Source of the DNA: a virus
Strand: one strand, 5' to 3'
DNA: 20,402 nt
Virus genome (UHGV): UHGV-0166854
In this document: piece after piece, positions 2,316-2,654 of the stretch
Layout: the number at the start of each line of letters is the position of its first letter
How positions within the stretch are numbered: the first letter of the stretch is position 1
Notes under the pieces: generated by a model
The model's database searches: none
What the model was told of the DNA's origin: nothing
What the model saw: the letters and a program-made list of their open reading frames with translations, nothing else
Made by a program: the position numbers and the translations under genes

Positions 2316-2654
2316 TTATTCCCAAAGTGCTGTTGCAGCATCCATTACAGGATCCAAAGGAATTTTTACGCCTGCATACTCCGGGCTATCTTTCCAAACA
2401 GTATCAATATTGCTCCCCTCAAGCTTTCCAGACTTTACTCCATCAATCGCAAAACCATTTAATGGGTATCGGTCATCTGTTGCTTTGTCGTACACAAAGG
2501 CATATTTACCGTTGACACAAGACACCGTAGCTTTTTCAAAAGTTAACGGCCAATCCTCACCAAACTTAGCGCCATCTAAATCCTGTGTTTTTTCAGCGGC
2601 TGAGGCTCCAAAAGAAAGGGTAAGAAGCAGAGCTAAAAAGAGTTTACATTTCAT
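2316..2654 (-). CDS. Small exported protein (113 aa) with N-terminal signal peptide, co-oriented between cI and int
   Basis: Start moved to ATG at 2652-2654 (MKCKLFLALLLTLSFGASAAE, classic signal peptide) preceded by AAGGGA; the ORF-track N-terminal extension overlaps cI and is rejected. Confidence 0.75.
   Translation of the reverse strand: MKCKLFLALLLTLSFGASAAEKTQDLDGAKFGEDWPLTFEKATVSCVNGKYAFVYDKATDDRYPLNGFAIDGVKSGKLEGSNIDTVWKDSPEYAGVKIPLDPVMDAATALWE

Follow-up and report, generated by a model that had tools for sequence, protein, structure and literature searches.

The cI–int interval

The window, a 20,402-nucleotide stretch of the viral genome UHGV-0166854, is the left half of a PSP3/186-like prophage of the P2 family (Peduoviridae, Eganvirus-type). 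Its positions 1200–4600 are 94.5% identical to Escherichia phage vB_EcoM-613R3 (613R3) and 86–91% identical to Salmonella phages PSP3 and SEN1, and its cII–fil segment is 94.8% identical to phage 186. On the minus strand, the gene for the cI immunity repressor (2663–3523; 286 amino acids, with two Phage_CI_repr HTH domains and a Phage_CI_C domain in Pfam) is followed by an ORF at 2316–2654 and then by int, the gene for a tyrosine integrase (1253–2293; 346 amino acids; Pfam). The ORF between them, which lies with all its features given below on the minus strand, has 113 codons including the stop and so encodes 112 amino acids, not the 113 of the preliminary description of this DNA, which had the coordinates, strand relation, spacing and signal peptide sequence right. 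Pfam and homology place it in the DUF2511/YebY family. The gene has been catalogued before: it is the ortholog of PSP3 orf28/gp28 (NP_958085), RefSeq lists it as "DUF2511 domain-containing protein" (E. coli record WP_001394631.1), and the ortholog in phage Midge is annotated "putative periplasmic protein".

The ATG of the DUF2511 ORF (2652–2654) is separated by 8 nt from the cI stop codon (TAA, 2663–2665). A Shine–Dalgarno sequence, AAGGGA (2659–2664), overlaps that stop codon 5 nt before the ATG and is kept in six aligned phages or strains. We rejected a longer form of the ORF from a start at 2726, because it overlaps cI, its extension is interrupted by stop codons in many orthologs, and both the signal peptide and the Shine–Dalgarno sequence fit the ATG at 2654; the RefSeq annotation is also the 339-nt form. 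The Pfam score, the dN/dS values and the recurrence of the ORF at the same position in 67 loci indicate that this is a real gene, far more than a chance ORF.

On the other side, the int ATG (2291–2293) follows the ORF stop by 22 nt. This arrangement recurs across the orthologous loci, which comprise 65 IMG/VR contigs and 2 species-representative genomes from a collection holding one genome per species: the neighbours of the DUF2511 gene are cI and int in all 67, and in nearly all of them the gene lies 8–9 nt from the preceding stop and 21–25 nt from int. A consensus scan of the coding strand between cI and int found no promoter-like or terminator-like site. The tight, same-strand placement in a cI–int operon that was first noticed in the window is thus a general feature of these loci. 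Together with the lack of such sites, it makes it a reasonable inference from gene arrangement that the ORF would be made with the repressor in the lysogen. A classic moron with its own promoter and terminator was considered and rejected, as neither was found between cI and int and the ORF is coupled to cI at 8 nt. Nearly all DUF2511 loci share the tandem-HTH type of cI found in the window; an exception is the outgroup representative P0020, which follows a 186-type cI with one HTH and 194 amino acids.

A predicted periplasmic protein of the YebY family

The window protein scores 59.5 bits with the Pfam DUF2511 model (PF10709; cut-off 21, E=4.5e-16) and aligns to positions 5–86 of its 87, bearing out an early guess that it might belong to a DUF family. 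It also matches E. coli YebY (PDB 7N0J; E=3.4e-6, about 29–32% identity) and PHROG 2950, which is listed as of unknown function; no match to the ORF was found in NCBIfam or, at E<=1, among the PADLOC-DB defence models. The fold, a four-stranded antiparallel sheet packed by helices, is near-identical to that of YebY. AF2 predicts it confidently from a 71-sequence alignment, which was used in place of one with 16 close homologs only (pLDDT 66), although AF2 is insensitive to changes of the C111W type described below.

Residues 1–19 (MKCKLFLALLLTLSFGASA; 2598–2654) form a signal peptide with predicted SPase-I cleavage before A20, leaving a mature N terminus AEK, as judged by the n/h/c layout and the (-3,-1) rule. 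The n-region carries K2 and K4, the 11-residue hydrophobic core reaches a maximum Kyte–Doolittle 9-mer of 2.97, and A-S-A stands just before A20. Although the signal peptide is the most variable segment of the DUF2511 orthologs in sequence, its layout is kept in all 47 distinct orthologs, with 1–3 basic n-region residues, a core maximum of 2.4–3.4, A/S/V/T/I/L at -3, A/S at -1 and the mature N terminus AEK. The Sec/SPase-I signal peptide recognized in the window is therefore a property of the whole set of orthologs. A lipoprotein is ruled out by the lack of a lipobox.

E. coli YebY is periplasmic by experiment and disulfide-bonded (PMC8689200). The conserved signal peptide and the homology to this periplasmic protein support the strong inference that the phage DUF2511 protein is exported as a soluble periplasmic product. 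A mature product (residues 20–112, predicted, 2319–2597) that is a roughly 10-kDa soluble α/β domain of the YebY/MlbQ type in the periplasm is strongly supported.

A phage-borne lineage tied to the repressor gene

Searching 1.84 billion representatives with a profile returned 770 DUF2511 clusters. The PSP3-type clade is a single representative (E=1.9e-43), and the gap to the next, at 1.3e-20, sets this phage-borne clade off from the rest of the YebY family. The next six representatives (P0020–P0025) all lie in P2-like phage DNA, and these nearest outgroup clusters stand directly downstream of a repressor gene on the same strand, with varying details. P0020 is located between the single-HTH cI described above and int, and P0022 between a tandem-HTH cI and int; P0021 follows a tandem-HTH cI in an apparent prophage remnant; P0024, on a short contig, directly follows a 191-amino-acid ORF; and P0023 and P0025 are in P2-like phages, P0023 with a small unannotated ORF at the repressor place. 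That all six follow the repressor position suggests that the tie of the YebY-type fold to the Peduoviridae lysogeny module is old and broad.

Within the clade, which fills most cI–int slots of PSP3-type prophages in Escherichia, Salmonella, Enterobacter and Klebsiella, PSP3 gp28 and the orthologs of SEN1, 613R3, Midge, SW9, SI22 and RCIP0057 are 71–98% identical to the window protein over residues 21–110/112 (tblastn) and have the same position and spacing between cI and int. Wherever dS is unsaturated, dN/dS against the window allele is 0.09–0.25, and the DUF2511 frame is thus under purifying selection. The protein nevertheless varies far more than its neighbours, with identity falling to 46–50% where int is 92–95% and cI 71–87% identical. 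The variable parts are the N-terminal segment, residues 68–72 and 81–85 and the C-terminal helix; the W35–C46 strands, the RYPLNG motif and a clade-specific VKSGKxEG segment are nearly fixed.

The allele types of cI, DUF2511 and int assort independently, giving a mosaic. Across window positions 1253–3523, comparison with one orthologous locus (L006) gives a dS of 0.04 for cI, 0.18 for DUF2511 and 1.26 for int, the int protein being 93% identical. This sharp shift in synonymous divergence across three adjacent genes indicates that recombination breakpoints flank the DUF2511 cargo gene.

The interval as a variable cargo slot

To describe the interval independently of the ORF, we surveyed it from the cI protein, which gave 80 IMG/VR loci, 75 of them with a tandem-HTH cI and int; given the redundancy of IMG/VR, the counts are descriptive. 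DUF2511 occupies the slot in 57 of the 75 loci. In the other 18 the slot is empty or otherwise filled, 4 of them being empty with a gap of 30–80 nt. The gene is likewise absent from 186 and from some PSP3-type relatives, so that it is not a conserved intracellular component of all 186-like phages, an outcome that, like the lack of a signal peptide, would have spoken against the preliminary description.

The other occupants are a secreted PHROG 3807 protein, WYL-domain proteins or a 279-amino-acid protein. The PHROG 3807 proteins, of 130–137 amino acids and with their own signal peptide, are found at L105:3873-4265, L123:3835-4239 and L130:3882-4295 and, together with DUF2511, at L114:3831-4235; we found no homology between this cargo and either DUF2511 or Glo of Vibrio cholerae phage K139. 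Proteins of 187–199 amino acids with two N-terminal hydrophobic helices (2-TM) and a C-terminal WYL domain replace DUF2511 in loci L119–L124, L141 and L153–L156 (for example L119:3822-4385). Some loci have a bPH/SHOCT protein downstream of DUF2511. In one locus, the stretch between DUF2511 and int (L152:4215-6130) contains a candidate defence protein of the PDC-S15 (FRG-domain) type (E=7.8e-55) and also a GmrSD_N/NsnA/PD-T4-2_A-like protein. Judged by such matches, recognized defence genes use the same cI–int slot. The cI–int interval of K139-like phages has been listed as a defence hotspot (Rousset 2022).

GC3 of the DUF2511 ORF is 32%, the lowest of the region, compared with 39–43% in cI and int and a phage-wide value of about 50%. 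The gene thus combines presence/absence polymorphism with deviant base composition, as expected of a moron in the sense of Hendrix. That it is dispensable accessory cargo in the lysogenic cI–int operon is strongly supported.

Loss of the disulfide cysteine in the window allele

[quoted passage not shown] The equivalent of Cys48 in the window protein is Cys46 (2517–2519), which all 149 family representatives and all orthologs share. The window allele lacks the C-terminal partner that YebY retains: codon 111 (2322–2324) is TGG, encoding Trp, a position at which TGC or TGT is found in 613R3, PSP3, Midge and E. coli strain 222. Cys111 is present in 64 of the 67 orthologous loci, and Trp is confined to the window and two loci with the identical protein. 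In the wider family the C-terminal Cys aligns in 139 of the 149 representatives, most of the others having a Cys shifted by a few residues. Family membership of the window protein is therefore firm, and the allele is atypical and possibly defective.

Among complete E. coli genomes, 44 of 5426 carry the gene. In 12 it is at least 99% identical to the window, 11 of these being listed as 100% identical. Another seven complete genomes have 95–99% identity; in the six of these that are listed, at 97.0%, the match covers 329 rather than 339 nt. The one examined, E. coli Ecol_545 (L072:1501-1829), has the cI and int proteins of the window and also its C3/W111 allele, which there has lost 10 nt in the invariant RYPLNG motif (window 2461–2470, GATACCCATT), and is annotated "frameshifted". 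No frameshift or disruption was found in Cys111 alleles among the matches listed.

These observations raise the possibility that the window copy is a decaying remnant, in which C111W leaves little or no stable protein and which persists through the recency of the loss and clonal success. The replacement of a near-universal family Cys, the expression failure of YebY mutated at either Cys (PMC8689200), and the 10-nt deletion, carried on the same allele by the records of the 95–99% band and absent from the listed Cys111 alleles, all point this way. Against this, the exact W111 protein is intact in at least 1000 public contigs and 11–12 complete genomes, so that it is either tolerated or hitchhiking on a successful clone; Trp111 also occurs in a second allele, which has other substitutions (P0001); and the AF2 fold remains confident, for what a method insensitive to such a change can say. 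The frameshift pattern fits relaxed constraint after C111W, yet probably reflects one clonal event. On balance we consider decay of the window copy to be close to an even call, and this reading is compatible with any ancestral function of the gene.

Possible functions of the DUF2511 protein

The sequence, family and genomic context of the gene were already known from databases and one literature sentence, and a positional analogue with an exclusion function has been known since 1999. In the literature found, the phage DUF2511 copy is assigned no function, and accounts of P2-like regulatory regions and of Eganvirus evolution do not discuss the ORF. Three points are new here: that the enterobacterial PSP3-type cI–int interval serves as a cargo slot which other secreted proteins and candidate defence genes also use, that phage DUF2511 proteins form a radiation of their own associated with the repressor gene, and that the window allele has lost the disulfide cysteine.

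The positional analogue is Glo of K139. According to the K139 record, the promoter PL drives cI, orf2, glo and int, and Glo is a "periplasmic protein; involved in phage exclusion"; it is described as a soluble periplasmic exclusion protein where PMC3952083 cites Nesper 1999. Like the window gene, glo lies in a Peduoviridae genome directly upstream of int in the lysogenic transcript, and both products are small, secreted, soluble and without a lipobox (as predicted for the window product). The two are not homologous: hhalign gives a probability of 3.6%, Glo has no match to DUF2511 and belongs to PHROG 7270 rather than 2950, and the secondary-structure make-up appears different. No homology was found between Glo and PHROG 3807 either. 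Three unrelated small secreted proteins thus share one operon position in Peduoviridae, which would argue that they work alike, not that they belong together, and an exclusion phenotype is documented for Glo only.

Small proteins outside the cytoplasmic membrane that block DNA entry by superinfecting phages include Sie2009 of Tuc2009 and Spackle of T4. Ltp of TP-J34 is another such protein. The folds and anchoring of these three proteins (lipoprotein or TM helix) are unrelated to those of the window protein, and none of them appears among the structural matches listed for it.

In the mechanism that we favour, translation from the ribosome-binding site overlapping the cI stop would yield the product whenever the lysogen makes its repressor. 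After export by Sec and removal of the signal peptide by signal peptidase I, the protein would fold in the periplasm into a YebY/MlbQ-type domain, which a disulfide from Cys46 to the penultimate Cys normally holds together. It would then act as a small envelope binding protein that benefits the lysogen, as does the unrelated Glo at the same position. Superinfection exclusion, by blocking a periplasmic step in the delivery of incoming phage DNA, is the most probable role, given the precedent of Glo, the presence of defence-type genes in the same slot and the speed and mosaic pattern of the evolution; a less probable one is protection of the envelope against some other extracellular agent. In the window itself, C111W removes the disulfide partner, so that the protein would probably be destabilized or non-functional, and a sister sublineage went on to the frameshift. 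A lysogen-expressed periplasmic exclusion or conversion factor, probably impaired in the window allele, is our best overall explanation, held tentatively and at somewhat less than even confidence: the analogy with Glo is one of position and compartment, and the functional data on the family point elsewhere, to copper import and lantibiotic immunity.

The first of these directions would make the protein a copper-homeostasis paralog that binds or modulates the host YobA/YebZ (CopC/CopD) importer, giving the lysogen lower copper uptake, altered copper tolerance and altered mar-dependent antibiotic responses. It has the same family and near-identical fold as YebY, whose co-expression lowers YebZ-dependent copper accumulation (PMC11923076), and the target is available because E. 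coli hosts carry yobA-yebZ-yebY; in addition, the remnant carrying the related P0021 adjoins a host copC-copD-yebY operon. However, deletion of yebY alone gave no reporter phenotype (PMC11923076), identity to YebY is low, and neither the phage clade nor any of its six nearest relatives lies in a cop operon, all of them being carried by phages: AZY-type YebY proteins are encoded with copC/yobA and copD/yebZ, as is E. coli YebY in its yobA-yebZ-yebY operon, whereas the neighbours in the 67 loci are cI and int of a prophage lysogeny operon. A protein identity of 46% where int keeps 92–95% is also not expected for the partner of a conserved host transporter, and the other slot occupants are unrelated to metals. 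The host YebY beside the remnant is of the AZY type and dissimilar to P0021, so capture from the neighbouring host yebY was rejected. We regard the copper reading as unlikely. The lantibiotic direction comes from MlbQ, which confers immunity to NAI-107 (PMC8689200), and would have the phage protein act in the periplasm by binding a microcin, a colicin domain or an antimicrobial peptide that attacks the envelope, so that the lysogen becomes immune or tolerant. A variable ligand would fit the fast mosaic evolution, but MlbQ (PDB 2MVO/6QFP) is a lipoprotein with a long linker from an actinomycete lantibiotic cluster, whereas the window protein has neither lipobox nor membrane anchor and only phage neighbours, with no bacteriocin, ABC-transporter or immunity genes found nearby. 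Moreover, lantibiotics act on the lipid II of Gram-positive bacteria and seldom gain access to the periplasm of enterobacteria, and a shield of this kind seems distinctly improbable. Least probable by far is a phage-internal role in which the ORF tunes int expression, through translational coupling or spacing, or lysogeny control. Its location between cI and int with conserved short spacers would suit such a role, but the conserved signal peptide and periplasmic fold make cytoplasmic regulation unlikely, and related phages work with an empty slot or unrelated cargo, or, like 186, without the gene.

The remnant itself (L076/L077, positions 1–5339) keeps a cII-like gene, cI, the P0021 type of DUF2511 and a bPH/SHOCT gene, together with an integrase fragment only. 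The P0021 protein is found in at least 24 contigs, and its adjacency to the host copC-copD-yebY operon may be coincidence. The retention of cI and DUF2511 in this remnant hints at domestication.

A broader generalization of the exclusion reading, which we consider possible but doubtful, is that phage DUF2511 proteins, as soluble factors in the periplasm, widely serve superinfection exclusion or envelope protection in enterobacterial P2/186-like prophages and that the Peduoviridae repressor–integrase interval is a dedicated slot for cargo that is expressed in the lysogen and acts at the envelope. If so, three or more unrelated families of secreted proteins (DUF2511, PHROG 3807 and Glo) would have come to occupy the slot by convergence, and the YebY/MlbQ fold would have a wider use as a decoy or binder in the periplasm. 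Exclusion of phages by this protein would amount to an uncomplicated periplasmic mechanism that needs one gene and uses a fold of known structure, of relevance to phage-therapy host range and prophage competition; if instead copper import is modulated, prophages would tune metal and mar-linked antibiotic responses. The C111W and frameshift alleles found in nature can serve directly as comparators for loss of function.

Other features of the window

Positions 1–33 (TCGTCGGCAGCGTCAGATGTGTATAAGAGACAG) are an untrimmed Illumina Nextera read-1/Tn5 mosaic-end adapter at the contig end, and the 'MCIRDR...' ORF at 17–163 begins inside it, so that the start of this ORF is artefactual. An AT-rich (32% GC) ORF of 281 amino acids (291–1136, plus strand) separates int from the host yfiB side of the prophage; it belongs to PHROG 17113 (unknown function) and has no Pfam match and weak HEPN-type PADLOC matches (E=1.3e-4). 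It corresponds to the hypothetical protein WP_001394629.1 in E. coli S3 and is absent from strain 222, where yfiB directly follows int; it may be cargo of a minor int–att hotspot that has been described (bioRxiv 10.64898/2026.02.27.708500).

In the apl/cox position, the rightward (lytic) operon opens with a gene (3645–4016, plus strand) that has no Pfam match; the Cox/Apl analogue of PSP3 has been described as a singleton without detectable domains (PMC3448106). Just before the portal gene, in the classic gpA–portal defence hotspot of P2-like phages, is a low-GC (37–40%) ORF of 334 amino acids (9639–10643, minus strand) that falls in PHROG 11743 (unknown function) and has no Pfam or PADLOC match. 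A low-GC (about 31%) gene for a 248-amino-acid pentapeptide-repeat protein (19570–20316, minus strand) stands on the opposite strand right after the tail genes gpR and gpS, and may represent the accessory-gene hotspot reported within the P2 tail and late genes.
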